Of a stretch of 64,000 nucleotides of DNA, positions 3,620-25,741 are shown piece by piece (positions within the stretch are counted from its first letter, which is position 1; each line of letters opens with the position of its first letter). This DNA is from an uncultured bacterium. GTDB taxonomy: Bacteria > Hydrothermota > UBA3072 > B12-G15. The translations under genes and the position numbers were made by a program. The stretch is taken from positions 6,113 through 70,112 of the forward strand of contig CBFDSV010000003.1 of assembly GCA_965612735.1 (NCBI GenBank), in the 5' to 3' direction. Under the pieces are notes generated by a model. That model was not told where the DNA came from and searched no databases. It saw only the letters and a list, made by a program, of their open reading frames with translations.

Positions 3620-3844
3620 AGTGAGAAAAGCTTTCAGCAATTTTGCATAACTGTTAATTTTGTTGAAATATGGATCGGGATTGGTTGGTAACTTTATCAT
3701 TTCCTCTTTGAATGATTTAATAAATTCTTTTCTGCAAACCAAACCATTATCTGTTTAAATTTCAAAGAGTTGGGAAAAGAAAAAAACACTTGACAAATGA
3801 AAAAAATTTGTTTAACTAACAAAAAACCCAAAAAAGGAGCGCAA

Positions 3845-6800
3845 ATGTTTCTTTTCTTTCTCATTTCTCAAACTTTTAACTGGGTTCATGTTTCAAATGG
3901 AACTGCAAGTGCTGGTTCTTCTTCAGATTGTGATTATGCCTATTCTGTAGTTGTTTCAAACGATACCATTTTTTCTGGTGGTTTTATTGGAAACACCTAT
4001 AAGGCAGGCCACATTGTTGCCCTTGATACATCAGGAACATCTCTATGGACCTATACTGGTACCTATCCAACTTCTGACTGTGAGATATACGACATCGTTA
4101 GTGATGGTGAAGGAAATATCTATGCAACAGGATATTTAATTCAGAGTTCTCCTGATATCTGGATACTGAAGATAAAAGACGGTAGCCTTGTATGGGAAAA
4201 AACCTATGATGGTGGTGTCAGTGGGTTTGATATCGGACATTGTATCACATACGGAACAGATAGTTATATTTACATTGCTGGTGAAAACGAAGCCCCTTCA
4301 GATTCGGGTGCCAATATATGTATTCTGAAGGTGGATACAGCAGGAAATATCTTACACGAAATCACCATTGATGGCGGATACAGTGCAGACAGGCCAAACG
4401 ATATTCTTTACACAGAGGTGAATGGAGAACCCTATATATATGTTGCTGGATACATGATGAAAAAAAATCCTGTCAGTGGAATGCCTGAAAGAAGATTCTA
4501 TGTTTGCAAGTTTGATACTGCTTTATCCCCGACCTCTTTAGAAAGTTACATTTTTACGCAGGTTTCCAACAGCGAAGCCTATGCAATAACAAGATTCCCT
4601 GATGGTAACATCTATGTGGTGGGATACGAGAACAAAAGTTTGCCCTGGGGAGAAGAGATATCGGTCGTAGCACTCACACCAGATACCCTTGGAGAAGTAT
4701 TCCATTATTTCTATCACGGAACAAATGGTGATTCAAATGGAAATTCGGATAGGGGTTATGATATTGTTTCTGATAATTCAGGATACCTTTATTTATGCGG
4801 ATATTCATATTACGATGCACAACAGGTAAATAATGCAGTAATTATCTGTATAGATACCCTTGGAAATCAACAATGGCTATACGAATATAATCCGCATCTA
4901 TACACACCCGACGATATTTTCCGTTCCATTACCATTTATAAAAATTTTGTTTTTGCAACAGGTTATACACTTCCCTATGGCACTGTGTATAGAAAACTTC
5001 TACTTGCAGGATTGACCACTTCTGGAACAGAAATCTTTAACACCTATTACCCTGATGGCGATTCATCTGAAGGATACAATGTTGTTTATAGCAATGGTAA
5101 CCTTTATATTGCAGGAATGGTTGAAGAAACAAATGACCACAAGTTCGCAGTGTTCTCTTACAGTGTGGAGATTGACACCATTCCACCAGCAAAGGTTACA
5201 CTTATCTCTCCTGATAGTGGTATAATTTCTTCTCAGACCGCACAGGTGTTTACATGGAAGAGTGTTACAGATGCCTCTGGAATAAAAGGATACATTTTCC
5301 AGTTAAGTTATGAACCTTCTTTTGCTTCTACTATTATTGATACAATGCTTTCGGACACAGCCTTCTCACAGAACTTTTCCAATGACACAACCTTTTACTG
5401 GAGGGTTCAGGCTTTAGATTCTGCTGGCAATTATGGGGAATGGTCAAATATCTGGGACATAACAATTGACGGAACTGTTCCTACAACCCCTGTGCTTATC
5501 TCACCTGTTAATGACACAATACTTTACCTCTCAAGCGTTCAATTCCAGTGGACATCTTCATCAAAGGGAACACCTGTTCACTATGTAATCAAAATAGATT
5601 CAATAGGTCCAGGGTTTATTTCGCCTTTCCTTGTAGATACAGTGGACACAAACGTTTACAACTATACCTTTACACAGGATGGTGAATTCTGGTGGAGTAT
5701 TCTTGCCTTTGACGATGCAGGAAATACAAGTGGAACCAGTATAGACTCTTTTATTCTGGATAAAACCCCTCCTGTAATAGACTCTGTAACAATCTGGACT
5801 GATACAACCTACAGAGGTCCTTTTGAGGTGCGAATGAAGGTAGTGGATGTTTCACCATTATCAGCGGTTGAATTATATTATCATATTAACAGTGGAACCT
5901 CGGTTACATCCAATCCTGTTTCCATAGGCAACAACTGGTTTGTTGATACAATCCCTGAAATTCCTGGAACCGAAGAAGACACTGTTTATTATTCAATTTA
6001 TGCAGCAGACGCAGGAGGTAATGAATCAGAGTATCCATCTGCAGGTGCAATTTCTTTCCGTGTGCTTGAAGACACGACTTCATATACAATCGTCTGGGAG
6101 AATGACTTTGAATCCGATAGCGGGAATATGGAGGCCGCAGGTGACTGGGAGTGGGGAGACCCTGAATATTCAGGAAGTTACTCAGGTCCCTCTGATTCCC
6201 ACTCTGGAACCCTGTGCTGGGGAACTGTCCTCACAGGGGATTACTCAAATTCCTCCAATTCCATTCTGACAACACCACCTATAACCATACCTGCAACCTT
6301 AGATAGTTTTGTGTATCTTTCCTTCTATATGTGGTTTTACAGTGAAAATTATTATGATGGTGGAAATGTAAAAATCTCACTTGATAATACAACTTTCTCC
6401 GTTATCCAGCCGCTTTTCCCTTCTTATGATACAGTTATATATTCTGGAAACGCAGGAATTCCAGGAGAAAACGCGTGGACTGATACAATTGGTGCACATA
6501 ACTGGATACAAGCAAAGTTTGACCTCTCAAACTATGTGGGTGAGACAGTTTATATAAGATTCCACTTCGGAAGCGATGGAAGTGTTGTCCGTCCAGGATG
6601 GTATATTGATGATGTCACAATATATGGACTCGGACGAACAGGAACTGTGTCAAAGGATATACCTGAAAAAGACTTCTTATGTGTAGACCCCCTAAGTGAG
6701 AAACTTGAAATCACCTTTGGTCTCTCGCATCAGACTGATATCAGTATTAGGATATATGATATTACTGGCAGGCTTGTAAGAAAACCCATAAGAGGCAGTT

Positions 6801-13236: not shown

Positions 13237-14082
13237 ATGAGAAACTTGTTTATTCTCCTGCTCCTTGCAGGATGTGTTTTACATAAAAGTCCCATTGAGA
13301 ATGTTGATACATCTCCACCAGAAAGGGTAGTGAAACTTGTCTTCATACACCACAGTTGTGGAAGAAACGGGCTTGAAACAGGTAACGGAGATCTTGGTGA
13401 TTCCCTCAATGCAAATAACTATTTTGTGAGTGAATGCTACTATGGGTGGGATGAACATCCTGATACTGCCCATTATTCTGTAATGGGAGACCATACTGAT
13501 ACAGAGGATTGGCCGTACTGGTTCAATGATGTTGTGATGCCCTCTGTATATAAGTCAAATTCACATCCATCCTACGATAACAAAATCCCTGACCCTGGTG
13601 GAGAGAATGAGATAATCATGTTCAAGTCCTGTTTCCCATGCAGTTATGTTGGTGAATCCATTGAGGATGAGAAGGCTATATATAATGCCCTTCTTGACTA
13701 TTTCAGGCAACATCCTGAAAAGATGTTTGTTCTTGTAACCCCACCACCAATGAGAACAATTGAGAATAGCCATCTAACAAGGGAACTCACAAACTGGCTC
13801 TGTGATTATGAGAATGGGTGGCTCAAGGACTATCCATTGAATAATGTTTTTGTTTTTGATTTTTATAATGTGCTTACAGACCCAAACAATCATCATCGTG
13901 TAGAGGATGGAGAGATTCAACATATTGTGAGCGACAACCCTGTTGACCTGGAACATCCCAATGAACTTTACTATTACAGTGGGAGTGATAATCACCCCAC
14001 ACCAGAAGGCAACAGGAAGTCCACAGAGGAGTTTGTCCCCCTTTTGAATGCATACTGCCATATGTGGAAACAGGAGGAATGA
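13237..14082 (+). CDS. Hypothetical lipoprotein
   Basis: Signal peptide with lipobox LLLLAGC. No domain recognised. Confidence 0.5.
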   Translation: MRNLFILLLLAGCVLHKSPIENVDTSPPERVVKLVFIHHSCGRNGLETGNGDLGDSLNANNYFVSECYYGWDEHPDTAHYSVMGDHTDTEDWPYWFNDVVMPSVYKSNSHPSYDNKIPDPGGENEIIMFKSCFPCSYVGESIEDEKAIYNALLDYFRQHPEKMFVLVTPPPMRTIENSHLTRELTNWLCDYENGWLKDYPLNNVFVFDFYNVLTDPNNHHRVEDGEIQHIVSDNPVDLEHPNELYYYSGSDNHPTPEGNRKSTEEFVPLLNAYCHMWKQEE

Positions 14083-15497
14083 GGCAGCGTTCTTTGATTG
14101 AAGAGTATTTAAAGCGGATAAGGAGGCTTGAAAGGGCCGTTAAAAGAATAAACCAGATTAAGACCCCCGAAGCAATCATTAAGAATGTTCTCAAGGAGTG
14201 TAATAACATCCTGAAATCTTCTTCCTGTGCTTTGGTACTTAAAAGGGAAAAAAATCTATGGGATGCATTCGTATATAAAAAGGGTAGAAAAATCCTGAAG
14301 AATGATACGATTGTGTCCATTGAAAAACCAGATATTGTTTCCCTTTTCCCTGGAAGGGGTTTATTTATCGGGGAGATTTCAATAAACATTGATGATAAAG
14401 ATACAGGATATTTTTATGGAGCGTTTGATAACAGGGAAACACTTGAACACGCAGAAAAGTTTATCTTCTCCATTATAGAAACCATTCTGATAAGTGCACT
14501 CTCCAGGATTGAACTGCTGAAGGAGGTTAACTTTGCCCACAGGCATTTGAAGATTGTCTATGATATGAGCCAGTCCATCATATCCACAACAGGATTTGAT
14601 AAACTGATAGATAAACTCTTTAAGGAGATTCAACAGCATTTTGGTTATGAGAATATGGTGCTCTTTGTAAGGGAGGATGATGAAACCATGATCCTGAGAT
14701 ATTCAACCCGTCCGCTCCTTGGGCATATTGGTCTGAAATTCAAGATTGGGAAGGACGGCATCGTTGGGCATGTGGCAAAAACAGGCAAACCCTATTATGC
14801 GCCAGATGTGTGGAAAGACCCTTACTATATTATTGGAAGATTTCCTGCTCGTTCAGAATTCACCATACCACTGGTTCTTAAAGGGAAAGTAATTGGTGTG
14901 CTTGATATAGAGAGCACAAAACCCAATGCATTCCCCTCTGAAACAAGAGAGATTCTCAGTGCACTTGCAGCAAATATTGCAGTTGCCATGGAGAGGGCAA
15001 GACTATATGAGGAGACAGAGAGGCTTTCAATAATGGACCCATTAACAGGGGTTTCCAATAGAAGATTGCTGGAAAAGATGCTCCAGAATGCAATAGACCG
15101 TTCAACACGATACAATCGGAAGTTTGCTGTTCTCTTTATTGATTTTGACAATTTTAAGCCCTTCAATGATAGATATGGGCATGCAGAGGGGGACAAGGTA
15201 CTAATTTCACATGCACAGGTGATCAGGGAGCACCTGAGAAAGAGTGATACAATAGGAAGGTACGGTGGGGATGAATTTATTGTTATACTTTATAATGCAT
15301 CAAGGAAGTATGCAGAAAAGGTGGCAAACCGCATATTGAACAGTATTGCAAAGAGCAGATACAGAGAAGTCACTGTGTCCATAGGGGTATCTGTTTATCC
15401 TGAGGACGGAGAAAATGTTGAAGACCTTATCAGGTCGGCTGATGCTGCTTGCTACAAGGCAAAGAAGTTCGGTGGTCAGAGGGTTGATTTCGCCTGA
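14079..15497 (+). CDS. GAF-domain diguanylate cyclase (GGDEF)
   Basis: C-terminus carries RYGGDEF and DPLTGVSNRR motifs, with a central GAF domain. AGGAGG RBS precedes the ATG at 14079, which overlaps the upstream stop. Confidence 0.8.
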   Translation: MRQRSLIEEYLKRIRRLERAVKRINQIKTPEAIIKNVLKECNNILKSSSCALVLKREKNLWDAFVYKKGRKILKNDTIVSIEKPDIVSLFPGRGLFIGEISINIDDKDTGYFYGAFDNRETLEHAEKFIFSIIETILISALSRIELLKEVNFAHRHLKIVYDMSQSIISTTGFDKLIDKLFKEIQQHFGYENMVLFVREDDETMILRYSTRPLLGHIGLKFKIGKDGIVGHVAKTGKPYYAPDVWKDPYYIIGRFPARSEFTIPLVLKGKVIGVLDIESTKPNAFPSETREILSALAANIAVAMERARLYEETERLSIMDPLTGVSNRRLLEKMLQNAIDRSTRYNRKFAVLFIDFDNFKPFNDRYGHAEGDKVLISHAQVIREHLRKSDTIGRYGGDEFIVILYNASRKYAEKVANRILNSIAKSRYREVTVSIGVSVYPEDGENVEDLIRSADAACYKAKKFGGQRVDFA

Positions 15498-15567: not shown

Positions 15568-15596
15568 TCTTATAACTGGCACAGAATATGTATAAT
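15568..15596 (+). promoter_or_regulatory. Candidate sigma-70 promoter with a perfect -10 TATAAT (15591-15596) preceded by TG
   Basis: TATAAT lies 22 nt upstream of the AGGAGG RBS of the Gly-rich gene. The -35 is weak (TCTTAT). TGGCAC at 15577-15582 also resembles a sigma-54 -24 element. Confidence 0.4.
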
Positions 15597-15618: not shown

Positions 15619-15900
15619 ATGTTTGGATATGGATGGTATGGTCCTGGTTTTGGATTTGGTTGGGGTAGAGGCTGGGGTAGAGGTTGGGGTAGAGGTTGGG
15701 GTTTTGGAGCAAGGCTTGGTTATTGCCCCTGGACAGGTCTTCCACGGGGATGGAGGTGGGCCTATGGTGGATTTTATCCCTACTGGGGTGCATATAATCC
15801 CTATTTTTATACAAATCCATATGTAAATCCATATGGATACTGGGGGTATCCACCAGAGCCCTACAACCCACAGCAACCTGAAACTTCAGGGAATAAGTGA
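15619..15900 (+). CDS. Small Gly/Trp/Arg/Tyr-rich low-complexity protein with (GWGR)4 and NPY-type repeats
   Basis: AGGAGG RBS, then MFGYGWYGPGFGFGWGRGWGRGWGRGWGFG...YNPYFYTNPYVNPYGYWGYPPEPYNPQQPE. Minus-strand and alternate-frame ORFs over the same DNA are repeat artefacts. Confidence 0.55.
   Translation: MFGYGWYGPGFGFGWGRGWGRGWGRGWGFGARLGYCPWTGLPRGWRWAYGGFYPYWGAYNPYFYTNPYVNPYGYWGYPPEPYNPQQPETSGNK
15658..15705 (+). repeat. 4x tandem 12-bp coding repeat (GGT/C TGG GGT AGA), encoding GWGR
   Basis: Direct tandem copies visible in the sequence. Confidence 0.9.
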
Positions 15901-15909
15901 GGTGGAGAA

Positions 15910-16515
15910 ATGAAGATACTTGTTACATCCACAGGGCCCACCCTTGATTCCCCTGTGGATATGAGGTTTGGAAGGTGTGCCTACTTCATACTTGTTGACC
16001 CTGAAACAATGGAGTATGAGGCAATCAGTAATCCCTATGCACAGGCACCGGGTGGTGCAGGTATTCAGACTGCACAGATGGCACTCCAGACAGGTGCTTC
16101 TGCGATTATCACTGGTTCTGTTGGTCCAAATGCATCTGGTGTACTTGGAACAACAGGGATAAGGGTCTTTGAAAGCCCGAATGTAAGTGTTGAAGAGGCA
16201 GTGAGGATGTACAAGGAAAATAAATTACAACCTTTAACTGTGGGAGGTGGTTTTATGCCAGGAGGATTTGGAATGGGAGCAGGGTTTGGTGGTGGATACG
16301 GTAGGGGTGGTGGTTTTGGAAGAGGTTATGGTAGAGGCGGAGGTTATGGAGGTTATGGTGCCTATGGTGGCTTTGGTCCAGGATACAATCAATGGACACC
16401 ACCCCAGATGAACCCTGCTGAAGAACTTCAGATATTGAGAACTCAGGCGGAGATGCTTAAAAGGCAACTTGATGCAATAGAAAGAAGAATCAGGGAACTT
16501 GAAAATTCAGGCTGA
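15910..16515 (+). CDS. NifX/NifB-family (dinitrogenase FeMo-cofactor-binding fold, PF02579-like) protein with RGG/YGG low-complexity tail and C-terminal coiled coil
   Basis: MKILVTSTGPTLDSPVDMRFGRCAYFILVD...IITGSVGPNASGVLGTTGIRVF matches the fold. The tail reads GGGYGRGGGFGRGYGRGGGYGGYGAYGG, followed by LQILRTQAEMLKRQLDAIERRIRELE. Confidence 0.7.
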   Translation: MKILVTSTGPTLDSPVDMRFGRCAYFILVDPETMEYEAISNPYAQAPGGAGIQTAQMALQTGASAIITGSVGPNASGVLGTTGIRVFESPNVSVEEAVRMYKENKLQPLTVGGGFMPGGFGMGAGFGGGYGRGGGFGRGYGRGGGYGGYGAYGGFGPGYNQWTPPQMNPAEELQILRTQAEMLKRQLDAIERRIRELENSG

Positions 16516-16546: not shown

Positions 16547-16861
16547 ATGAGGATAGCAGTGAGTGCTACAGAGGCAGATTATAATGTTGCTGGTGTTGAC
16601 CCGAGATTCGGAAGGTGTTCATTTTTCATAATATACGATACAGAAACAGGTGAATGGAGTTCCTTCCCCAATCCAGCAAAGGATGCAGTGGGTGGTGCTG
16701 CGATAAAGGCTGTGGAATTTCTTAAAAGTAAGAATGTTGATGTTGTTGTTACAGGTAACCTTGGTCCCAATGCAACATCTTCTCTTACAGCAGCAGGGAT
16801 AAGGGCAATAACAGGAGTAACTGGAAAAGTGCTGAATGCGGTGAAGAGGGCGGGTGAATGA
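16547..16861 (+). CDS. NifX/NifB-family small protein
   Basis: MRIAVSATE...DPRFGRCSFFIIYDTETGEW...VVTGNLGPNA matches the fold. Confidence 0.7.
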   Translation: MRIAVSATEADYNVAGVDPRFGRCSFFIIYDTETGEWSSFPNPAKDAVGGAAIKAVEFLKSKNVDVVVTGNLGPNATSSLTAAGIRAITGVTGKVLNAVKRAGE

Positions 16862-17691
16862 AGGTAGCCATTGGAAGTGGAAAGGGGGGGACGGGAAAGA
16901 CGCTGCTTTCAACCTCCCTTGCCCTTTCACTTGAATATGTGAGATACCTTGACCTTGATGTAGAGGAGCCCAATGGTCATATTTTCATAAAACCAGACAT
17001 CAGGGAAAAAATACCATTCTCAATCCCTGTACCAGAAATAGACTTCAACCGCTGTACATATTGTGGTGAGTGTGCAAAGGCATGCGAGTTCGGGGCAATA
17101 TTTGTAGGGACAAACACGGTGAATGTCTTTGAAAAACTCTGCCATGGGTGTGCCTCATGTAAACTTGCATGCCCTGAAAATGCAATAAGTGAAAGGCCAT
17201 ATGTTGTTGGTGAAATATCCATTGGAAGGCGTGACAAGATTGAATACATAATGGGATACCTGAAGTTGACAGAGGCATTATCAACCCCACTTATCAGATA
17301 CATAAAAAAAGAGTATGGAATGGTCTCAGGTGACATTATTATGGACGCTCCACCAGGGACTTCATGTCCATTTGTTCAGTCTATTTCTGACACTGATTTT
17401 GTTATTCTGATCACTGAACCCACCCCCTTTGGGCTCTCAGACCTTGAGATATCTGTTGAAATTGTCAGGGACATGAAATTGAAAGCGGGAATTGTGATAA
17501 ACAGGGCAGACCTTGGTTCAGAAGAAGTGAAGGAGAAGATAAAGGGGCTCGGGCTTCCTGTACTTCTTGAAATTCCATTCAGTAAGGATATTGCAGTGGG
17601 ATATTCAAAGGGTATTCCGCTTGTTGATGTACTGCCAGAATACAGGGAGAAGATGAAAAAACTGTGGGAGAGAATAAGGGAGATGGTATGA
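16858..17691 (+). CDS. MinD/ParA-family P-loop ATPase with inserted 2x[4Fe-4S] ferredoxin domain
   Basis: Deviant Walker A GSGKGGTGKT. Ferredoxin-type motifs CTYCGECAKAC and CHGCASCKLACP. Start overlaps the upstream stop. Confidence 0.75.
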   Translation: MKVAIGSGKGGTGKTLLSTSLALSLEYVRYLDLDVEEPNGHIFIKPDIREKIPFSIPVPEIDFNRCTYCGECAKACEFGAIFVGTNTVNVFEKLCHGCASCKLACPENAISERPYVVGEISIGRRDKIEYIMGYLKLTEALSTPLIRYIKKEYGMVSGDIIMDAPPGTSCPFVQSISDTDFVILITEPTPFGLSDLEISVEIVRDMKLKAGIVINRADLGSEEVKEKIKGLGLPVLLEIPFSKDIAVGYSKGIPLVDVLPEYREKMKKLWERIREMV

Positions 17692-18578
17692 TAAGGGAAG
17701 TTGCCATTGTCAGTGGAAAGGGTGGAACAGGAAAGTCAACAATTACGCTTGGACTTGCTTCTTTACTGAAAGACAAAGCAGTATTTGTTGATGCAGATGT
17801 TGATGCCCCTGATATGTACATTGTTATGGAGCCAGAACTTCTTAAAAAAGAGGATTTTGAAGGACCAAGATTCCCTGTTTATATACCTGATAAGTGTACA
17901 GGATGTGGATTGTGTGAGCAAAATTGCAGGTTTGATGCCATCAAAATAGTGGATATGAAACCTATTTTCAATGAATTTAAGTGCGATGCCTGTGGTGTAT
18001 GCTGGAGGGTCTGTCCATTTGATGCTATTGAGGTGAGGAGGGATATTTCAGGTGAAATATATATTTCCCGTTCAAGATTTGGCCCATTCGTCCATGCAAG
18101 ACTGTTCCCTGGAAGAGAGAATTCTGGAAAACTTGTAAGCAGGTTGAGGGTTGTGGCAAAGGCCGTGGCTGACGATGCAAAGAAAGATCTTATAATACTT
18201 GATGGTCCTCCTGGTGTTGGATGCCCTGTGATTTCAACCATCACAGGGGTGTCACTCACTGTGGGTATTGTGGAACCTACCCTTTCAGGGATACACGACA
18301 TTATCAGGGTTTATGAACTATCAACATTCTTTAATATTCCCTTTACAATTGTGATAAACAAGAGTAATATAAACCCTGATATGGTTCAACGGATAAAGGA
18401 GTTTGCCAGTGAAAATGGCATAAAGATACTTGGAGAGATACCATTTTCAAGGAGGATTGTAGAGGCACTTCTTCAGAGGAAAACCATAATTGAGGGTGAT
18501 GTTGAGGATGGAATTAAGGAGGAATTAAAAAGGATATGGAATGGAATCCAGTCAATGCTCTCGCTGACGGGATTATAA
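17688..18578 (+). CDS. MinD/ParA-family P-loop ATPase with ferredoxin insert (paralog)
   Basis: VSGKGGTGKST, CTGCGLCEQNC and CDACGVCWRVCP motifs. ATG at 17688 overlaps the upstream TGA. Confidence 0.75.
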   Translation: MIREVAIVSGKGGTGKSTITLGLASLLKDKAVFVDADVDAPDMYIVMEPELLKKEDFEGPRFPVYIPDKCTGCGLCEQNCRFDAIKIVDMKPIFNEFKCDACGVCWRVCPFDAIEVRRDISGEIYISRSRFGPFVHARLFPGRENSGKLVSRLRVVAKAVADDAKKDLIILDGPPGVGCPVISTITGVSLTVGIVEPTLSGIHDIIRVYELSTFFNIPFTIVINKSNINPDMVQRIKEFASENGIKILGEIPFSRRIVEALLQRKTIIEGDVEDGIKEELKRIWNGIQSMLSLTGL

Positions 18579-20170
18579 TTACAGATGAACATCTAAAGAT
18601 TATCAATTTTAATCAGGCTATACTAAGAATTACAGGTTTTTCTCCTGATGAATTGATGGGGAAAAATATAAAAGAGATACTACCTTACTTTAAGAAGGTT
18701 GAGAACAAGGTTATTCCTGCTGTTGAGACAGAGATGAAGACCTGGGAAGGAATGACAATCAAGGTTCTTGTTTCTGTGAATCCTGTTAAATCACCAGAAG
18801 GGAAAACAAATCAACACCTTTTTGTTATCAGGAATATTTTTGAGTACCTTTTTCTCCTGAAGCAACTCGTACAGGAAAGAAATTTCAAGGAGGCAATCCT
18901 TGAATCCATACTTGATGGTGTATTCACTATTGATAGTCAATTCAGGATAACTTCTTTTAACAAAGCAGCGGAAAATATCACAGGGTATAAAAAAGAAGAG
19001 GTTCTTGGCAAAAACTGCAGTGAGGTGATGAAGTCACCGGATGCAGATGCCTGCCCACTGAAAAAAACACTTGAGACAGGAGAGAATGTTTCAAATTATG
19101 AGATGGAAATTATAACAAAGAATGGGAAAAGAATCCCTGTATCTGTGAATACTGCAATTCTCTACGATGAAAAGGGTGAGGTGATAGGAGGTGTGGAAAC
19201 ATTCAGGGATATGTCCGAGATTGTGAGACTGAGGAACGAAGTAAGGCACAGATTTTCCTTCGGAAACATTATAGGGAAGTCTGATTGTATGCAGATCATC
19301 TATGACAAACTTGAGGTTATTTCTGTAACGGACTCAAATGTACTTATTGAAGGGGAAACAGGAACTGGTAAGGATTTGATTGCAAGAACAATCCACTACA
19401 ATTCAATGAGAAAGGATAAGCCCTTTGTGAAGATAAACTGTGCTGCAATCCCTGAGAATCTCCTTGAGAGTGAACTCTTTGGTTATAAGAAGGGCGCATT
19501 TACAGGTGCTGTGATGGATAAGATGGGGAAGTTTGAGGCTGCAGATGGTGGAACCATCTTCCTTGATGAGATAGGGGATATGCCACTCTCACTCCAGGCA
19601 AAAATATTGAGGGTGATAGAGGAGAGGGAGTTTGAGAGGCTTGGAGAGGTTGAGACAAGGAAGGTGGATGTGAGGGTGATTGCTGCTACAAACAGACCCC
19701 TTAAAGAACTTGTGGAACAGGGGAAATTCCGAATGGACCTTTATTACAGGTTGAATGTTGTGAGGATAAGGCTTCCTGCTTTGAGGGAAAGGGCAGAGGA
19801 TATACCACTTCTCCTTGACCACTTTATTGAGGTTTTTAATAAAAAATTCAACAAAAAGGTCAAAGGTGTTGAACAGAGGGTTATGGATTTTCTCCTTGAC
19901 TACTCCTGGCCAGGAAATGTAAGGGAACTTGAGAATGTGATTGAACATGCCATGATACATGCCAGGGGAGATTTGATAAGGTTTGATAATCTGCCTGATT
20001 ACCTGTTTGAAGAAGGGGAATCTGGTGCAGTCAGTCTGGTGGATGTTGAAAGGGAGCACATACTCAGGGTATTGAAAAGTGTAAACAATAACAAGACCAG
20101 GGCAAGCAAGATACTTGGTATATCTCGCTCCACACTCTGGAGAAAACTCAAAGAACTGAACATAGAATAA
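18536..20170 (+). CDS. Sigma-54-dependent transcriptional activator (2x PAS, AAA+ sigma-54 interaction domain, Fis-type HTH)
   Basis: GETGTGKDLIAR, ESELFGYKKGAFTGA and a C-terminal HTH (TRASKILGISRSTLWRKLK). Confidence 0.85.
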   Translation: MEWNPVNALADGIIITDEHLKIINFNQAILRITGFSPDELMGKNIKEILPYFKKVENKVIPAVETEMKTWEGMTIKVLVSVNPVKSPEGKTNQHLFVIRNIFEYLFLLKQLVQERNFKEAILESILDGVFTIDSQFRITSFNKAAENITGYKKEEVLGKNCSEVMKSPDADACPLKKTLETGENVSNYEMEIITKNGKRIPVSVNTAILYDEKGEVIGGVETFRDMSEIVRLRNEVRHRFSFGNIIGKSDCMQIIYDKLEVISVTDSNVLIEGETGTGKDLIARTIHYNSMRKDKPFVKINCAAIPENLLESELFGYKKGAFTGAVMDKMGKFEAADGGTIFLDEIGDMPLSLQAKILRVIEEREFERLGEVETRKVDVRVIAATNRPLKELVEQGKFRMDLYYRLNVVRIRLPALRERAEDIPLLLDHFIEVFNKKFNKKVKGVEQRVMDFLLDYSWPGNVRELENVIEHAMIHARGDLIRFDNLPDYLFEEGESGAVSLVDVEREHILRVLKSVNNNKTRASKILGISRSTLWRKLKELNIE

Positions 20171-20172
20171 GC

Positions 20173-21012
20173 GTGTCAGAAAGAAGGGGCATCAGAAGCG
20201 ACATCATACTTCTCACTGCCTCAATCATATGGGGGTTTGCCTTTGCCTTTCAGAAAAAAGGAATGGATTTTATTGGTCCATTTCTCTTCACAGGTTTACG
20301 ATTCCTTCTTGGAAGTCTGGTTGTTTTACCTTTTTTATTCAGAAAAGGAGAACAGGGTGGTTTTAAAGAGTCAATAATACTGGGTTTTCTACTCTTTGCA
20401 GGTGTCTCTCTCCAGCAGGTGGGCATTGTTTATACAACCGCCGGGAAGGCAGGGTTTATAACAGGGCTCTATGTTGTTTTTGTCCCAGTAGCAGGGTATT
20501 TAATGGGTATAAGAACCAGAAGGTTTACCTGGATTGGTGCCGGGCTTGCAATTGTAGGTCTATACCTCTTGAGTATCAGGGGAAGATTTTATCCTGAAAA
20601 GGGTGACCTTCTTGTACTCCTTGGTGCAGTTTTCTGGACCTTTCACGTAATCTACATATCAAAGTTTACAAAAGGGAAAGACCCCTTGAAACTCGCATTC
20701 GGTCAATTCCTTGTTTGTGGTATTCTTGGAATGGGTGTGGCATTTGTCCTTGAGGATATCTCAATGAGTGGAGTGTTTAACACAGGCATCCCTTTACTCT
20801 ATGCAGGTGTTTTGTCATCAGGTATTGCATACACATTACAGGTTGTTGGACAGAAAAGGGCACATCCATCCCATGCTGCTGTGATTTTGAGCCTTGAATC
20901 CCTGTTTGCTGCTATTGGTGGCTTTTTACTCCTCCACGAAGTCATGACCCCCAGAGAAATTCTGGGTGCAGCACTGATGCTCACAGGTATGATGATCTCC
21001 CATTTTTCATAA
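20173..21012 (+). CDS. DMT/EamA-family transporter
   Basis: Ten-TM profile with a duplicated EamA-like pattern. GTG start. Confidence 0.65.
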   Translation: MSERRGIRSDIILLTASIIWGFAFAFQKKGMDFIGPFLFTGLRFLLGSLVVLPFLFRKGEQGGFKESIILGFLLFAGVSLQQVGIVYTTAGKAGFITGLYVVFVPVAGYLMGIRTRRFTWIGAGLAIVGLYLLSIRGRFYPEKGDLLVLLGAVFWTFHVIYISKFTKGKDPLKLAFGQFLVCGILGMGVAFVLEDISMSGVFNTGIPLLYAGVLSSGIAYTLQVVGQKRAHPSHAAVILSLESLFAAIGGFLLLHEVMTPREILGAALMLTGMMISHFS

Positions 21013-21054: not shown

Positions 21055-23244
21055 ATGGTTGGTATGGGTAAACTCCTTATTGTGTCCAACAGGCTTCCCC
21101 TTAGTGTTGAGAAGAAAAGGGGAAAGTTATACTTCCATCCGAGTATAGGAGGTCTTGCCACAGGGCTTTCATCCTTCTACAGGGAAAAGAAGGCACTATG
21201 GATTGGATGGCCTGGTGTCTCAACAGATAAGATTTCTGTTGAAGAAAAGGTGGAGATTGAAGAGAGGCTTTTCACTGATAATTGCCTCCCTGTATTTCTT
21301 ACATCCAAGGAGGTGGAAAGGTACTATGCAGGATTTTCAAACAGGACCATCTGGCCATTGTTCCATTATTTTTATCAGTATGCCCAGTTCAGGAAGGAGT
21401 ATTTTGAGGTATACAGATTGGTGAATGAAAAATTCTGTGATGTTATCACAGGGGTTGCAAAACCTGATGATACAATCTGGATTCACGATTACCAGTTGAT
21501 GCTTCTTCCTGGTCTTCTCAGAAAGAAGTTACCTTCAGCAACCATAGGGTTTTTCCTCCACATCCCATTCCCCTCCTTTGAGGTTTTCAGACTCCTTCCT
21601 TGGAGAAGGGAGATACTTGAGGGGTTGCTGGGTGCTGACCTTGTGGGATTCCACACATTTGGATATGCAAGGCACTTTCTATCCAGTGTTTTAAGGATTA
21701 TGGGATACGACAATACCCTTGGAAGAATAAATCTGAAAAACAGGGTGGTTCTTGTTGATGTTTTCCCCATGGGAATTGATTTTGACAGATTCAACAAAGT
21801 CGGTGAGAATAAAGAGGTACAATCAGAGGTTGAAAAGATAAAAAGCAATCTGAAGGCGGAAAAAATCATTATCTCAATAGATAGGCTGGACTATACAAAG
21901 GGAATTATAGAGCGACTTGAGGCATTTGACGATTTTCTGAAAAGGTTCAAGGAATACAGGGAAAGGGTCTCCATGATTTTGATAACTGCACCATCAAGGT
22001 CAGGGCTTGAGCATTACCAGTATCTTGAAAAGAGGGTGAATGAACTTGTTGGTAGCATCAATGGAAGGCATGGAAGGGTTGGATGGATGCCTGTGTGGTA
22101 TATACACAGGTCAATCCCGTTTGAATCAATTGTTGCACTCTACCTTGTTGCAGATGTTGCACTTGTGACACCATTAAGGGATGGTATGAACCTTATTGCC
22201 AAGGAATTTGTTGCATCAAAAAAGGATAAAAGGGGTGTGCTCGTCCTGAGTGAGATGGCAGGTGCAGCTATGGAACTTGGGGAGTCCATAATCGTGAATC
22301 CTAATAGCAGAGAGGAGATGGTCTCAGCAATCAAGCAGGCACTTGAGATGTCACTGGATGAACAGGTTGAAAGAATGGCAAGGATGCAGGAGAGATTGAA
22401 GAGATACAACATTATCCACTGGGCAGAGGACTTTACAAAGAAACTTGAAGAGGCAAGGAACATAAACACAGAACTCCGCTCGCGCAGATTAACAAAGGAT
22501 ATTGAAAAGAAACTTATTGAAGATTTCACTTCAGGGGAAAAGAGGCTTCTTCTCCTTGATTATGATGGAACACTTGTTCCCTTCAATGTGAGGCCTGAGA
22601 GGGCAGGTCCTGACAGGGAACTCCTCTCAATTATTGATTCACTGACATCAATCAATGGGGTATGCCTTGTGATTTCAAGTGGAAGGGACAGACAGACCCT
22701 TGATAGATGGTTTGGCAGGTTCAACATTGGTATAATTGCTGAACATGGGGTATGGATAAAAAAATCAAGGGATACCTGGAAGGAGTTTATACCCTTGAGC
22801 CAGGATTGGAAAAAGGAAATAATACCTGTACTTGAGATGTTCACAGATAGAACACCTGGCTCATTCATTGAAGAGAAGGAGTTCTCCCTTGTATGGCACT
22901 ACAGGGGTGCTGAACCTGGACTTGCTGATGTGAGGGCGAATGAACTCAAGGAGGAACTTATAACACTTATATCAAATCTTGAACTTGAGGTTCTGGAGGG
23001 AAATAAGGTTATAGAAATAAAGAGTGCAGGTATTGACAAGGGAAAGGCTTCCCTTCTATGGGTGGAGGAGGGATGGGATTTTATACTTGCAGCAGGGGAT
23101 GATAATACTGACGAGGATATATTTGCTGTTCTGCCAGAAACAGCTTATACAATCAAGGTGGGGCATGGACTTTCAAAGGCGAGGTTCAGGGTGAATTCCT
23201 ATCTGGAGATAAGGGGGATTTTGAGGAAAATCAAGGAGGTGTAA
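21055..23244 (+). CDS. otsA: Bifunctional trehalose-6-phosphate synthase / trehalose-6-phosphate phosphatase (OtsA-OtsB fusion)
   Basis: N-terminal GT20 motifs (LLIVSNRLP, IWIHDYQLMLLP). C-terminal HAD motif LLLDYDGTLVPF. Confidence 0.85.
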   Translation: MVGMGKLLIVSNRLPLSVEKKRGKLYFHPSIGGLATGLSSFYREKKALWIGWPGVSTDKISVEEKVEIEERLFTDNCLPVFLTSKEVERYYAGFSNRTIWPLFHYFYQYAQFRKEYFEVYRLVNEKFCDVITGVAKPDDTIWIHDYQLMLLPGLLRKKLPSATIGFFLHIPFPSFEVFRLLPWRREILEGLLGADLVGFHTFGYARHFLSSVLRIMGYDNTLGRINLKNRVVLVDVFPMGIDFDRFNKVGENKEVQSEVEKIKSNLKAEKIIISIDRLDYTKGIIERLEAFDDFLKRFKEYRERVSMILITAPSRSGLEHYQYLEKRVNELVGSINGRHGRVGWMPVWYIHRSIPFESIVALYLVADVALVTPLRDGMNLIAKEFVASKKDKRGVLVLSEMAGAAMELGESIIVNPNSREEMVSAIKQALEMSLDEQVERMARMQERLKRYNIIHWAEDFTKKLEEARNINTELRSRRLTKDIEKKLIEDFTSGEKRLLLLDYDGTLVPFNVRPERAGPDRELLSIIDSLTSINGVCLVISSGRDRQTLDRWFGRFNIGIIAEHGVWIKKSRDTWKEFIPLSQDWKKEIIPVLEMFTDRTPGSFIEEKEFSLVWHYRGAEPGLADVRANELKEELITLISNLELEVLEGNKVIEIKSAGIDKGKASLLWVEEGWDFILAAGDDNTDEDIFAVLPETAYTIKVGHGLSKARFRVNSYLEIRGILRKIKEV

Positions 23245-23278
23245 GGTTTATTGCCTATTTTGAATATTCTGTTTTTCA

Positions 23279-23307
23279 TTGACATTTGTTTAATTTTCAT
23301 TTATAAT
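23279..23307 (+). promoter_or_regulatory. Consensus sigma-70 promoter: TTGACA-N17-TATAAT
   Basis: Exact consensus hexamers with a 17-nt spacer, 30 nt upstream of the OMP gene. Confidence 0.7.
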
Positions 23308-23338
23308 CTTTCCACAACATCTAAAAAAGGAGGTGTTT

Positions 23339-23797
23339 ATGAAGAAGTTTCTTGTCCTTATTCTGCTTGTTCTTCCACTTCTGGCGTTCTCCCAGATTGA
23401 AGCAGGAAAACTGAATGTTGGTGTATCAGGAAGTATAATGATTAAACCAGACTTTCATATGAGTCTTGGTGGCCACTTTGGTAAGATGTTCACAGACAAC
23501 ATTGAATTTGGTATCAATGGTTCATTCTACACTGGTGGTGGAAGCACTGGTTTCAGTGCAGGTGTCCTTGCCTACTACCATATGATGCTTGCAGAAGGGA
23601 TTTTTGGTTTTGCTGGTGTTGAGGTTATGTTCCCGATACAGCCTACATTCTCCAATAATGAGAGTTTTAACCTTGGATTTGACTACTTTGTTGGAGATAA
23701 TGTTGCTTTAAGGCTCTACAATCAACTTTACATATCTGAATTTGACTTTGGGAACTTCTACGACTATATAAATATTGGAACAGTTGCCTATTTCTAA
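23339..23797 (+). CDS. Small outer-membrane beta-barrel protein (OmpW/OmpA-like barrel family)
   Basis: Signal peptide, alternating hydrophobic strands and terminal F. A paralog lies at 39209-39664. Confidence 0.55.
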   Translation: MKKFLVLILLVLPLLAFSQIEAGKLNVGVSGSIMIKPDFHMSLGGHFGKMFTDNIEFGINGSFYTGGGSTGFSAGVLAYYHMMLAEGIFGFAGVEVMFPIQPTFSNNESFNLGFDYFVGDNVALRLYNQLYISEFDFGNFYDYINIGTVAYF

Positions 23798-23814
23798 AAC
23801 ATAAACCATTCATG

Positions 23815-23838
23815 AAGGGGGCTTGTCCCCCTTTTTTA
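23815..23838 (+). terminator. Rho-independent terminator (GGGGGCTTGTCCCCC followed by T6)
   Basis: GC hairpin plus TTTTTT after the OMP stop. Confidence 0.8.
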
Positions 23839-23882
23839 ATTAAGACAAAACCCTTCTTCCAGTAACCCCATTGGTTCAAACA

Positions 23883-23911
23883 TTGACAACCCCACGGGTA
23901 AAAGTTATTAT
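23883..23911 (+). promoter_or_regulatory. Sigma-70-like promoter for tRNA-Leu (TTGACA-N17-TATTAT)
   Basis: Perfect -35 hexamer, 17-nt spacer and a near-consensus -10, 8 nt before the tRNA 5' end. Confidence 0.6.
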
Positions 23912-23919
23912 TAGTGCAG

Positions 23920-24002
23920 GCGAGAGTGGCGGAACTGGTATACGCGCTGGATTTAGGATCCAGTGCCCATAGGGCTTGGGGGTTCGAATCCCCCCTCTCG
24001 CA
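23920..24002 (+). tRNA. tRNA-Leu (anticodon UAG), class II with long variable arm
   Basis: Acceptor GCGAGAG/CTCTCGC. Anticodon stem-loop CTGGA-TTTAGGA-TCCAG. T arm GGGGG-TTCGAAT-CCCCC. Discriminator A, with no encoded CCA. Closely parallels E. coli tRNA-Leu. Confidence 0.85.
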
Positions 24003-24021
24003 GAGAATACAGGAAGGAAGG

Positions 24022-25140
24022 ATGGTTATGGCTGAATACACACTTGAGGTAAAGAAAGAAGAACTTGACAAGAAGATTAAAGAACTTGCAGAAAAGTATA
24101 GAAAGGATGTCATGATTCCTGGTTTCAGGAAGGGCAGGGCACCTGTTGAACTGATTAAGGTCAGATTCAGCAGAGAACTTGAGGCAGAGGGCTTTCAGGA
24201 GATTGCAGGTGCAAAACTTGAAGAAATCCTTGAGAAGCATAGACCATTCATTTATGCAGGACCTGATGTGCTTGATGTAAAAAAGGACGAAGAAAAGGGA
24301 AACATAACCCTGAAGGTTGGGCTTGAAGTGCCTCCGGAGATTGGAAAGATTGATTATAAGAAACTATCCAGGGAACTTCCCGGTGGTGAAGTTACAGAGA
24401 AGGATATTGAAAAGGAACTTGAGAAACTCAGGGAGATAAATGCCGAACTTAAACCGGTGAAGAGAAAGATTAAGAAGGGTGATAGTGTTCTTGTAGATAT
24501 TGAGATGGGTGATGTGAAGATGACCAATTATTCACTTGACATAGGGAATGACACACTCTCAAGGTTTATAAAGGGAATGAAGGCAGGTGAGGAGAAGAAG
24601 AAAGAGATAGAGTTCCCCGAGAAATTCTCAATACCCGAACTTGCAGGTAAGAAAGGCGAAATCAAGGTTAAGGTGCTTGATGTGAAGGAGAAGGTATTAC
24701 CAGAGATAGATGATGAGTTCGCAAAAAATATGGGGTTTGAAAACCTTGATGACATGAAGAATGAAATCAGGGCACAACTGGAAGAGGACTTAAAGGAGAA
24801 TCTTGAGAAGAAGATAAGGGAGAAGATTCTGGATAATCTAATTGAACAGTTTGACATTGAACCACCAGAAAGCCTGGTGAGGTCTCTATCTGTGAATATG
24901 ACAAGGGCAGATGCAGAGAAGGAGGCAAAGAGGATTGCAATCCTTGATGCCATCGCATTGAAGGAGAAGATTGAAATCACAGATGAGGATATTGACAGGA
25001 AACTTAATGAGGTGGCTGAAGGAAAGATTGATGAAGAAAAACTTCCCGGATACAGGGACAATTTAAGGCCGGTGTTAATCAGAGAGAAGACCATTGAATT
25101 TCTTATAAAAAAAGTGAGGGGTGAAGATGGAGATAATTGA
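24022..25140 (+). CDS. tig: Trigger factor
   Basis: [13 protein letters not shown] ribosome-binding signature. RBS AGGAAGGA precedes the ATG at 24022. The ORF-track start at 23914 runs through the tRNA and is rejected. Confidence 0.85.
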
Positions 25141-25741
25141 ACAGATACCGTTTGTGATTGAGAAGACTGCCCATGGAGAAAGGGCATACGACATATATTC
25201 AAGGCTTCTTAAGGACAGAATAATATTTCTGGGTTCACTTTTGAATGAGCAGGTTGCCAATGTGATTATAGCACAACTTCTCTTCCTTGAGGCACAGGAC
25301 CCTGACAGGGACATTTACCTTTACATAAACAGTCCTGGTGGTCTGGTGAGTGCAGGACTTGCCATATATGATACAATCCAGTACATAAAACCCGATGTTT
25401 CAACCATATGTATGGGTGTTGCAGCAAGCATGGCAGCGGTTCTACTTGCAGCAGGTGCACCTGGTAAGAGGTATGCCCTTCCCCATTCAAGGGTTCTGCT
25501 CCATCAACCAATGGGAGGTGCACAGGGAACTGCAGAGGATATAAAAATACATGCAGAGGAGATTTTAAAGATAAGAAAGATAATCAATGAGATACTGTCA
25601 CACCATACAAACCAGCCCCTGAAGAGGATTGAGAAGGATACTGACAGGGATTTCTGGATGTCAGCACCTGAAGCAAAGGAATATGGAATTGTTGATGAGG
25701 TGATTGCAAAGAGAGGGGAGATGAATGCCAAAGCAGATTAG
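25121..25741 (+). CDS. clpP: ATP-dependent Clp protease proteolytic subunit
   Basis: [19 protein letters not shown]...INSPGG...[12 protein letters not shown]. Confidence 0.95.

Follow-up and report, generated by a model that had tools for sequence, protein, structure and literature searches.

In the 64,000-nucleotide stretch of DNA analysed here (the window), the gene directly upstream of a NifX-type fusion gene carries the tail signature of P. furiosus IssA, and this is the main new observation of our analysis. The fusion gene itself occupies the second place in a conserved operon, which encodes a small protein, the fusion, a bare NifX protein and two MinD-type ATPases with 2x[4Fe-4S] domains. 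On balance we lean towards reading the fusion as one subunit of a modular, split IssA-like scaffold for Fe-S binding, storage or trafficking. We infer this function from the homology with P. furiosus IssA and with the ORP/MrpORP proteins of Desulfovibrio. The features of the region are as follows.

15619..15900, + strand: small partner gene (module A), 93 aa; ribosome-binding site, homologs, codon differences and HMM
15658..15702, + strand: 12-nt tandem array coding for the small protein's GWGR repeats; TRF period 12, 3.8 copies, 93% matches
15709..15759, + strand: Cys motif A31-W47 of the small protein, ARLGYCPWTGLPRGWRW; conservation in 36 sequences
15910..16515, + strand: NifX-DUF5320 fusion gene, 201 aa; ORF, Pfam matches, homolog and NCBI searches
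15910..16239, + strand: predicted NifX/MTH1175/ORP-type domain, residues 1-110; PF02579, AlphaFold2, Foldseek and PDB sequence matches
16240..16401, + strand: disordered Gly/Tyr/Phe/Arg linker, residues 111-164, middle part of DUF5320; AlphaFold2, composition
16414..16506, + strand: amphipathic heptad helix, residues 169-199, C-terminal part of DUF5320; DSSP, conservation, spacing
16547..16861, + strand: second NifX-type protein, 104 aa, tail-less; PF02579 E 1.1e-22, conserved in L005
16858..17691, + strand: MinD/ParA-type P-loop ATPase with an inserted 2x[4Fe-4S] ferredoxin domain; CbiA/ParA and two Fer4 matches
17688..18578, + strand: second MinD/ParA-type ATPase with a 2x[4Fe-4S] insertion; Pfam, ortholog in L005
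18536..20170, + strand: PAS-PAS / sigma-54 AAA+ / HTH_8 enhancer-binding protein; Pfam, position conserved in L005

The fusion gene and its domains

An earlier note on this DNA had assigned the N-terminal ~110 aa of the fusion to a NifX/MTH1175-type fold, and the domain search and both structural approaches agreed with it. PF02579 (Nitro_FeMo-Co) matched residues 13-102 with an E-value of 1.5e-21 and 77 bits, against a gathering score of 26.3, and residues 1-110 of the AlphaFold2 model showed pLDDT values of 88-96. The top Foldseek match of the domain was the D. gigas orange protein (ORP, 2wfb; TM 0.86, rmsd 1.3 Å, 38% identity), with further matches to 1rdu, 1t3v and 1eo1, of the MTH1175/ORP alpha/beta fold. 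In the PDB sequence search, MTH1175 was matched with an E-value of 6e-21 and the D. gigas orange protein with one of 2e-17. The identity of the NifX domain was 38-40% to MTH1175 and ORP (40% for MTH1175), compared with 32% to IssA (E 1e-11). We are confident in the predicted NifX/MTH1175/orange-protein fold of residues 1-110, and by family the domain is predicted to be of the cofactor-binding type.

The tail corresponds to a curated Pfam family. DUF5320 (PF17253) matched residues 114-197 with 44.9 bits (cut-off 27), covering profile positions 13-99 of 99. Within it, the low-complexity stretch 111-160 consists of 56% Gly and 22% aromatic residues, with 3 Arg and 0 acidic residues; the linker 111-164 has a net charge of +3 and no Cys, and AlphaFold2 gave residues 113-164 a pLDDT below 50. 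The peptide GGGYGRGGGFGRGYGRGGGYGGYGAYGGFGPGY occupies residues 127-159, and arrays of 9- and 12-nt repeats lie inside the linker at 16312-16377. Residues 169-199 formed a helix in the AlphaFold2 model according to DSSP, with pLDDT 80-86. This helix contains AEELQILRTQAEMLKRQLDAIERRIRELE (residues 170-198) and places L173, L176, A180, L183, L187, I190, I194 and L197 at a/d positions with 3-4 spacing; L176, Q186, R193 and L197 were nearly invariant across 68 fusions. The tail as a whole (109-201) has a pI of 9.2, with 31% Gly and 13% aromatic residues. The disordered Gly/aromatic/Arg stretch and the amphipathic heptad helix of the earlier note were thus both recovered, while the term 'prion-like' describes the composition of the tail only. 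Absent from the fusion is the N-terminal segment of DUF5320, the site of the Cys motif in members that cover the whole profile, for example P0131 (positions 1-99): the match starts at position 13 and the tail is Cys-free.

The open reading frame begins with an ATG preceded by GAGGTGGAG, and the frame and both peptides were present as the earlier note had described them. That note had also set a check for a frameshift. The 9- and 12-nt G-rich repeats are error-prone, and a tail readable only through a frameshift or assembly error across them is conceivable, but we give such an artefact a negligible probability. The DUF5320 match is significant and lies in the very frame of the NifX domain. The exact protein is deposited as RKZ16165.1, with identical copies on 4 contigs from several sources, and full-length homologs number more than 100, among them relatives at 97, 88 and 56% identity, which all carry both domains. 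Compared with the 88% relative, the tail codons showed 21 synonymous and 10 non-synonymous differences, and the length variants of 201, 207 and 210 aa among near-identical relatives differ by in-frame FGRGGG or YGG units. The Pfam match, the full-length homologs, the codon differences and the in-frame variants exclude a frameshifted or alternative-frame origin of the tail.

What did not stand of the earlier note, which was right about a NifX-type fold, a disordered stretch and a heptad helix in one frame, was its view that this architecture is unusual for the family. Its own suggestion to look for the tail in homologs led to the opposite result, since 114 of the 120 best database matches combine PF02579 with PF17253. 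According to their source names, the bearers include Poribacteria, Methanosarcinales, Actinomycetota, Planctomycetes, Desulfobacterales, Hecatellaceae and WOR-3; judging from these domain matches, the NifX+DUF5320 fusion is common in Bacteria and Archaea. Methanosarcina spp. are cultivable bearers of it. Most tails of the family are of the GMGRG type, with Met in place of the aromatic residue. In distant relatives, the fusion lies in a FeoA-FeoB-DtxR-Fur context (L012), in a FeoB/DtxR context (L014), in a Zip/Mrp/Fer4 context (L013) and with NifU_N, DsrE/TusA and a CsoR-like repressor (L016).

The upstream small gene and the IssA tail

The small gene starts at ATG 15619, 3' of the ribosome-binding site AAAGGAGGTG; the alternative ATG at 15595 given by the ORF finder reads ATA in the 88% relative. 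Its product of 93 aa begins with GWGRG repeats, continues with the Cys motif, which holds the sole Cys, and finishes with a Tyr/Pro-rich end. A coiled coil is absent, the AlphaFold2 model had no fold and was disordered (mean pLDDT 48), and searches of Pfam and NCBIfam gave no match. The Cys motif was present in all 36 homologs, with C36, P37, T39, P42, R43, G44 and R46 invariant (36/36), and the comparison with L005 yielded 16 synonymous and 5 non-synonymous codon differences. A small Cys-motif protein is encoded immediately 5' of a PF02579 gene in L005, L006/L007/L009, L008, L010/L011 and L017, so that the pairing of small gene and NifX gene recurs in other lineages. In L012 and L016, DUF5320-like small genes other than the Cys-motif type lie directly 5' of the fusion.

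GWGRG repeats and the motif LGYCPWTG(L/M)P are common to the small protein and to the characterised IssA of P. furiosus (P0281), where the motif reads SILGYCPWTGMPSRRALRW; the first gene of the operon combines the repeats with LGYCPWTGLPRGWRW. This IssA tail signature (GWGRG repeats and LGYCPWTG.P with a single Cys) is not found on the fusion and is present on gene 15619-15900. When the small protein was compared with an IssA ortholog by plain BLASTP, the E-value was 0.058, a weak result that we attribute to composition adjustment, and a profile HMM was used instead, with 120 Gly/Arg-rich fusion tails as control. Built from the standalone small proteins alone, the HMM matched P. furiosus IssA with E 2.4e-7 (Z=1e6) and 83 of 120 Thermococcales-type proteins at E<=1e-3 (Z=1e6), and there were 0 matches at E<7 among the 120 control tails. 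A reciprocal profile search of 1.84e9 representatives returned only 30 proteins, one of which was of the Thermococcales IssA type. The exact IssA cloning primer (PMC5524996 supplement) had no match in the genome contigs; a degenerate back-translation of KIAIPTNGGG found four Thermococci loci, and a protein search then gave P. furiosus IssA.

The Pfam DUF5320 profile recognised neither the small protein nor the IssA tail. Coil-bearing members of the small-protein family matched DUF5320 proper, P0131 for instance over profile positions 1-99. In addition, P0296 and P0303 possess a NifX domain 50% identical to that of IssA (E 6e-29) followed by a DUF5320 tail with a coil, and P0296 aligned with the fusion of the window over its full length at 36% identity (E 3e-17). 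By sequence identity, NifX domains of the IssA clade with full DUF5320 tails do exist. By profile and motif comparison, the small protein is homologous both to the P. furiosus IssA tail and to the N-terminal half of a DUF5320 subfamily. Among NCBIfam models, none for IssA or DUF5320 gave a match, and within the literature that could be searched, DUF5320 / PF17253 had two incidental mentions and no earlier functional link. Neither the upstream partner gene nor the comparison with IssA figured in the earlier note; we find this comparison more informative than the 'prion-like' label.

The operon and its possible function

Downstream of the fusion and the bare NifX gene, the second ATPase gene probably starts at ATG 17688, overlapping the preceding stop by 4 nt, rather than at GTG 17664 as given by the ORF finder; its L005 ortholog of 296 aa likewise shows a 4-nt overlap. 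The pair of MinD/Fer4 ATPase genes adjoins the fusion in L005, L010, L012, L013 and L016. The PAS/sigma-54 activator, encoded 3' of the ATPases, also flanks a related cluster in L008 and is a possible regulator of the cluster. Genes of the feo, fur and suf groups were not found near the operon in the window.

In the IssA-like scaffold that we favour, the NifX domains would nucleate or bind anionic Fe-S species, in the form of clusters or of a thioferrate-like polymer. The disordered segments of the fusion and of its small partner, cationic and made up of Gly, Arg and aromatic residues, would hold these species electrostatically and could drive multivalent assembly, while the coiled coil would multimerise the NifX subunits and the Fe-S ATPases would load or unload clusters. 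The Cys-motif half of DUF5320 would reside on the small protein and the other half on the NifX subunit. The small partner has no coiled coil, and its physical association with the fusion is therefore a conjecture.

The reading that overlaps partly with this scaffold, and which we judge unlikely although it deserves serious weight, takes the NifX domain as a homolog of the orange protein with a non-covalent heterometallic sulfide cluster (Mo/Cu or similar). Together with the MinD-like Fe-S ATPases it would form a redox-regulated division or morphology complex, in which the DUF5320 tail would serve only for oligomerisation or localisation. ORP is indeed the closest structure, the adjacent pair of CbiA/ParA ATPases with two Fer4 motifs fits the architecture of Orp3/Orp4, and a PAS/sigma-54 activator adjoins the ATPases as OrpR does (PMC6345978, PMC8359166). 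NCBIfam MrpORP was also hit, in its NifX-like C-domain, by both NifX proteins of the window; the matches were weak and partial (27-40 bits, cut-off 450). The Mrp-NifX fusion (Orp9) itself is absent from the operon. The activator has two PAS Cys, C161 and C173, which differ from C52/C61/C65 in OrpR (PMC8359166). A promoter scan gave a candidate sigma-54 site, TGGCAC-N5-ATGT at 15577-15591, with 2 mismatches, and such sites occurred genome-wide at chance frequency (46 found, 44.9 expected). Moreover, the physiological meaning of the Mo-Cu cluster of ORP is itself uncertain, and this reading offers no role for the neighbouring IssA tail motif.

The remaining explanations concern the tail or the family name. 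We consider it improbable that the RGG/YGG tail is a nucleic-acid binding (e.g. G-quadruplex) or phase-separating prion-like regulatory module with the NifX domain as redox or metal sensor. Its Gly and aromatic content and its GRG triplets do resemble eukaryotic RGG/FG regions, a scan in M. mazei for an RG-rich putative quadruplex-binding motif flagged one DUF5320 and one DUF134 protein (PMC7565180), and DUF134 genes adjoin several fusions. The quadruplex link, however, comes from this motif scan alone, the majority of the family tails have Met and not an aromatic residue, and in the neighbourhoods it is Fe-S, Feo, DtxR and NifU genes that prevail, not nucleic-acid enzymes; IssA, furthermore, shows that such a tail can serve mineral binding. 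Still less probable, to a degree that makes it very doubtful, is a true chaperone of the nitrogenase cofactor (NifX/NafY) to which a tail is attached, a role suggested by the name of the Pfam family and by the product name at NCBI, 'dinitrogenase iron-molybdenum cofactor biosynthesis protein'. The neighbours examined, which span 1.4-31 kb of the window, include no nif genes, NifX of the NifEN complex (9ian_F) ranked behind ORP, TM1290 and MTH1175 with a weak structural match (E 2e-3), and many hosts of the family appear to lie outside known diazotroph lineages. A true nitrogenase role was rejected on gene context and structural ranking.

Iron and sulfide storage or buffering in strict anaerobes is little understood. 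To our knowledge, IssA is the sole protein for Fe-S storage to have been characterised, and searches for its homologs have until now followed the NifX domain alone. If the scaffold that we favour is correct, the IssA principle exists as modular multi-gene operons with their own Fe-S ATPases. If the IssA tail belongs to DUF5320, a domain of unknown function of many anaerobic Bacteria and Archaea gains a concrete function, and fusion-type genes should then not be annotated as nitrogenase cofactor biosynthesis proteins. A wider proposal, which we put forward tentatively and with more doubt than belief, is that DUF5320 might be a modular domain for iron-sulfide-mineral binding and assembly, of which the IssA tail would be a truncated copy. 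Its Cys/Trp motif, Gly-Arg linker and coiled coil would have been shuffled between small proteins and NifX paralogs, and together with the MinD-type Fe-S ATPases they would make up a condensate-like body for Fe-S storage, serviced by ATP, which would occur widely among anaerobic Bacteria and Archaea and not in the Thermococcales alone.

Comparison with known systems

MTH1175, TM1290 and TM1816 belong to the same fold and sequence family as the NifX domain of the fusion, but each consists of a single domain, with a PDB chain length of 116-124 aa, and has no tail. MTH1175 was placed by Vaccaro et al. in the IssA clade, as a member without tail (PMC5524996). DUF5320 shares with the tail of the fusion the profile including the C-terminal coiled coil. 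Here the module is fused to NifX rather than standalone; other genomes have standalone DUF5320 genes alongside the fusion.

The Desulfovibrio ORP complex (Orp3/4/5/8/9, OrpR) likewise combines an ORP-like NifX protein with two MinD-like 2x[4Fe-4S] ATPases in an anaerobe-specific setting, a likeness at the level of architecture only. Within it, MrpORP passes Fe-S clusters to the proteins of the complex (PMC6345978). ORP is a tail-less chain of 120 residues (PDB 2wfb), whereas the fusion has a tail, and DUF5320 modules are not described for the complex in PMC6345978 and PMC8359166. The complex has an MrpORP fusion and a sigma-54 promoter, while the operon here has no MrpORP and a sigma-54 promoter was not demonstrable.

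IssA of P. furiosus (PF2025) is a storage protein that holds Fe and S in the form of thioferrate nanoparticles (Vaccaro et al. 2017, PMC5524996). On its own, the NifX domain of IssA binds as many as 25 Fe per monomer, and thioferrate binding is proposed for the cationic Gly/aromatic tail (PMC5524996). Since Delta-issA P. furiosus still makes thioferrate-like iron, the role of IssA may be sequestration or detoxification and not obligatory storage (PMC8219758). [quoted passage not shown] IssA lacks this coiled coil and the fusion lacks the Pro-rich spacer of IssA; its linker is a Cys-free GYG/GFG/GRG stretch. The host of the fusion is a bacterial WOR-3-type MAG, that of IssA a hyperthermophilic archaeon. 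Both proteins nevertheless share an N-terminal IPR003731/PF02579 domain followed by a disordered Gly/aromatic/cationic tail and few Cys, and both have CbiA/ParA and Fer4 genes nearby, fragments of which adjoin issA in P. furiosus. The NifX domain and the Cys-motif tail, which form one polypeptide in Thermococcales, are encoded in the window by separate, adjacent genes.

The NifX-DUF5320 fusion and its reading frame

The gene under study lies in the following context.

14064-15497, +, GAF-GGDEF diguanylate cyclase, ending 121 nt 5' of the small gene
15619-15900, +, small gene, 93 aa, Gly/Trp/Arg/Tyr-rich, with ribosome-binding site AAAGGAGGTG ahead of ATG 15619
15910-16515, +, NifX-DUF5320 fusion, 201 aa, ATG start preceded by ribosome-binding site GAGGTGGAG
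16547-16861, bare NifX protein, following the small gene-fusion pair
16858-17691, MinD/ParA ATPase with a 2x[4Fe-4S] insertion
17688-18578, second MinD/ParA ATPase with a 2x[4Fe-4S] insertion
18536-20170, +, PAS-PAS/sigma-54 activator, closing the cluster
20173-21012, EamA transporter
21055-29212, +, bifunctional trehalose-6-phosphate synthase/phosphatase, then trigger factor, ClpP, ClpX and Lon, a chromosomal housekeeping context

Pfam assigned fusion residues 13-102 to PF02579 (Nitro_FeMo-Co, the NifX domain; E 1.5e-21) and residues 114-197 to PF17253 (DUF5320; 44.9 bits against a cut-off of 27, profile positions 13-99 of 99). A sequence search of the PDB matched MTH1175 (E 6e-21) and Desulfovibrio gigas orange protein (ORP; E 2e-17), along with TM1290. 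With 68 family members as input, AlphaFold2 gave a model that was confident for residues 1-110 (pLDDT 88-96), disordered for 113-164 (pLDDT <50) and helical for 169-199 (pLDDT 80-86); its top Foldseek match was ORP (2wfb; TM 0.86, rmsd 1.3 A, 38% identity). In linker 111-160, Gly accounts for 56% of the residues and aromatic side chains for 22%; the segment contains three Arg and is free of acidic residues. The hydrophobic positions of the C-terminal helix (L173, L176, A180, L183, L187, I190, I194, L197) follow a clean 3-4 spacing. The observation of the earlier note is thus confirmed: both peptides it quoted are present in the ORF, and Pfam, AlphaFold2 and Foldseek agree with its description of a NifX-type domain with a Gly-rich tail and heptad helix.

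Its interpretation stood only in part, since the architecture, which it held to be unusual for the family, is shared by 114 of the 120 best matches (PF02579 plus PF17253, about 185-225 aa). Source names among these 120 include Poribacteria, Methanosarcinales, Actinomycetota, Planctomycetes, Desulfobacterales and Hecatellaceae. There is nothing out of the ordinary about the gene within its fusion family, which is widespread and uncharacterised. Family tails are mostly cationic and of GMGRG type (median tail pI 9.6), that of the window fusion being an aromatic variant. Eleven of the best 120 matches have extra Fer4 (4Fe-4S ferredoxin) domains, placed after the coiled coil in P0044. In homologs P0044, P0052, P0085, P0086 and P0103, NifX and DUF5320 are joined to a 2x[4Fe-4S] ferredoxin domain at the C terminus, giving triple fusions of 255-295 aa; listed with them is a Planctomycetota variant, P0305, in which a Cys-rich, zinc-ribbon-like end (CVCPSCG...CPQCG) replaces the coiled coil.

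A frameshift or assembly artefact as the origin of the tail was rejected on several grounds. The exact same protein is deposited at NCBI (RKZ16165.1/RKZ20757.1, uncultured bacterium), and its 90% cluster takes in candidate division WOR-3 MAG proteins. Full-length relatives with both domains exist at 97, 88 and 56% identity. Against the 88% relative, synonymous codon differences exceed non-synonymous ones by 38 to 18 over the whole gene; for just the tail, the figures are 21 and 10. Finally, near-identical members (P0001, P0159-P0164; 90%-identity cluster) measure 201, 207 or 210 aa through in-frame variation of FGRGGG or YGG units. This repeat-number polymorphism maps to the Gly-rich linker (16294-16377), and the length variants fit tandem arrays of 9- and 12-nt units at the DNA level.

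The small upstream gene and the tail of IssA

[quoted passage not shown] It consists of an IPR003731/NifX domain and a 70-residue disordered tail whose Pro-rich first part gives way to a cationic, aromatic and Gly-rich one; the tail holds the protein's sole Cys. The isolated NifX domain bound up to 25 Fe per monomer, and the authors proposed that the tail holds the anionic polymer electrostatically (PMC5524996). Thermococci orthologs were found via the primer peptide of that paper, and then IssA itself (P0281, 179 aa), whose tail reads ...FGWGRGWGKGRGWGRGWGSILGYCPWTGMPSRRALRWYYGWW.

The small gene ends ten nucleotides before the fusion; its alternative ATG at 15595 is not conserved. The protein (MFGYGWYGPGFGFGWGRGWGRGWGRGWGFGARLGYCPWTGLPRGWRW..., then a Tyr/Pro-rich end) had no Pfam or NCBIfam match, and it carries the signature of the IssA tail, GWGRG repeats plus ARLGYCPWTGLPRGWRW with a single Cys. 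Both these repeats and LGYCPWTG(L/M)P, a string that is not repetitive, are shared with IssA. All 36 small-protein homologs (60-128 aa) contain the motif GA(R/T)LGYCPWTGLPRGWRW, with C, P, T, P, R, G and R invariant. About half add a C-terminal coiled coil, and these coil-bearing forms pass Pfam DUF5320 (e.g. P0131, profile positions 1-99). Two DUF5320 small proteins, P0122 and P0126, gave compositional matches that were weak and not significant (E about 0.5); the families concerned, PF17228 sulphur globule protein and keratin head domains, are likewise Gly/Tyr-rich coat proteins of inclusions.

A motif-region HMM trained on standalone small proteins only (Z=1e6) gave E 2.4e-7 for IssA and, at a threshold of E<=1e-3, recovered 83 of 120 Thermococcales-type proteins; none of 120 Gly/Arg-rich fusion tails matched (best E 7.4). 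A profile search of 1.84 billion representatives returned only 30 proteins; apart from a 201-aa IssA-type protein from Thermococcales, all were small. Precomputed Pfam lists PF02579 alone for every Thermococcales IssA, and in our own scans DUF5320 was sub-threshold at best. Judging from the shared motif, the coil-bearing DUF5320 homologs and the HMM and profile searches, the IssA tail seems to belong, in truncated form, to a DUF5320 subfamily. In two bridging forms, P0296 and P0303, the NifX domain is 50% identical to that of IssA (E 6e-29), and the GW/GM-Arg tail with its coiled coil scores as DUF5320; P0296 and the window fusion align over their whole length (36% identity, E 3e-17). It is well supported that the protein is a NifX-DUF5320 fusion related to IssA and lies in a conserved operon with an IssA-tail-like partner. 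Our search of the available literature library found no paper tying DUF5320 to IssA; this link and the split two-gene arrangement are what the analysis adds, and both are testable.

Tail modules and gene neighbourhood

How the three tail modules are shared out between the small protein and the NifX paralogs varies from locus to locus.

Arrangement of module A (Cys/Trp motif with GW-R repeats), module B (Gly-Arg linker) and module C (coiled coil)
Window and L005 (locus of the 88% relative): [A] + [NifX-B-C] + [NifX]
L017: [A] + [IssA-like NifX-B-C]
L008: [A] + [NifX-C] + [NifX-B]
L010: [A-C] + [NifX-C] + [NifX-B]
L006/L009: [A-C] + [NifX-C]
Thermococcales: [NifX-Pro-A]

Other DUF5320-like small genes lie immediately 5' of the fusion in L012 and L016. 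The related L008 cluster (1832-6294) contains genes for a PAS/sigma-54 activator, a pyridine-nucleotide-disulfide oxidoreductase and the small Cys-motif protein. Its NifX genes comprise one with a short GW/RK tail and a pair of tailed paralogs; of that pair, one member has a coiled coil and the other a GMGRG/GWGRG tail that is strongly cationic. Upstream of the cluster is an ABC-type metal uptake system (ZnuA/ABC-3).

The two MinD/Fer4 ATPase genes are found as a pair in L005, L010, L012, L013 and L016 too. Distant fusions neighbour FeoA-FeoB-DtxR-Fur (L012), FeoB/DtxR (L014), Zip/Mrp/ferredoxin (L013), or NifU_N, DsrE/TusA and a CsoR-like repressor (L016). P. furiosus issA is flanked by CbiA/ParA and Fer4 gene fragments. 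In the COM1 strain (L015, 3084-4836 and 5697-7572), several short CbiA/ParA and Fer4 calls on one side of issA look like a fragmented MinD/Fer4 ATPase, and a resolvase and an IS605 OrfB/TnpB-type gene lie on the other side. DUF134 (UPF0251, predicted to bind DNA) is repeatedly encoded ahead of the DUF5320/NifX genes in loci from archaea and some bacteria (L014, L016, L017); the window ORFs scanned with Pfam gave no DUF134 match. Upstream of the small gene, a sigma-54 -24/-12-like element (TGGCACAGAATATGT, 15577-15591, +) has two mismatches, including the -12 C, and such matches are not above chance.

Proposed function and comparison with known systems

In the mechanism we propose, NifX domains would bind anionic Fe-S species, disordered cationic and aromatic segments would hold these species and drive multivalent assembly, the coiled coil would multimerise, and the MinD/ParA Fe-S ATPases may load or unload clusters. 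Several caveats apply. With pI 5.6 and 2.5% Gly among its last 40 residues, the window fusion does not pass the published IssA/IssX screen; it also lacks the Cys motif, and its NifX domain is nearer to MTH1175 and ORP than to that of IssA. Delta-issA cells still make thioferrate-like iron (PMC8219758), and neither feo nor suf genes were found near the operon in the window.

Other functions have to be weighed. That the protein is a true nitrogenase chaperone is very improbable, as no nif genes turned up among the neighbours examined across 1.4-31 kb of the window and the structural match to NifX is weak. A nucleic-acid-binding or phase-separating RGG module, for which a motif scan is the sole support, is improbable as well. 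An ORP-like heterometal or cell-division complex is a possible, if doubtful, reading, and one partly compatible with Fe-S binding and assembly as proposed here. The architecture of the Desulfovibrio ORP system (ORP protein, Orp3/Orp4, OrpR) resembles that of the window operon, although three Cys are reported for OrpR and the second PAS domain of the window activator has two (C161 and C173). In that system, MrpORP hands Fe-S clusters to members of its complex (PMC6345978, PMC8359166).
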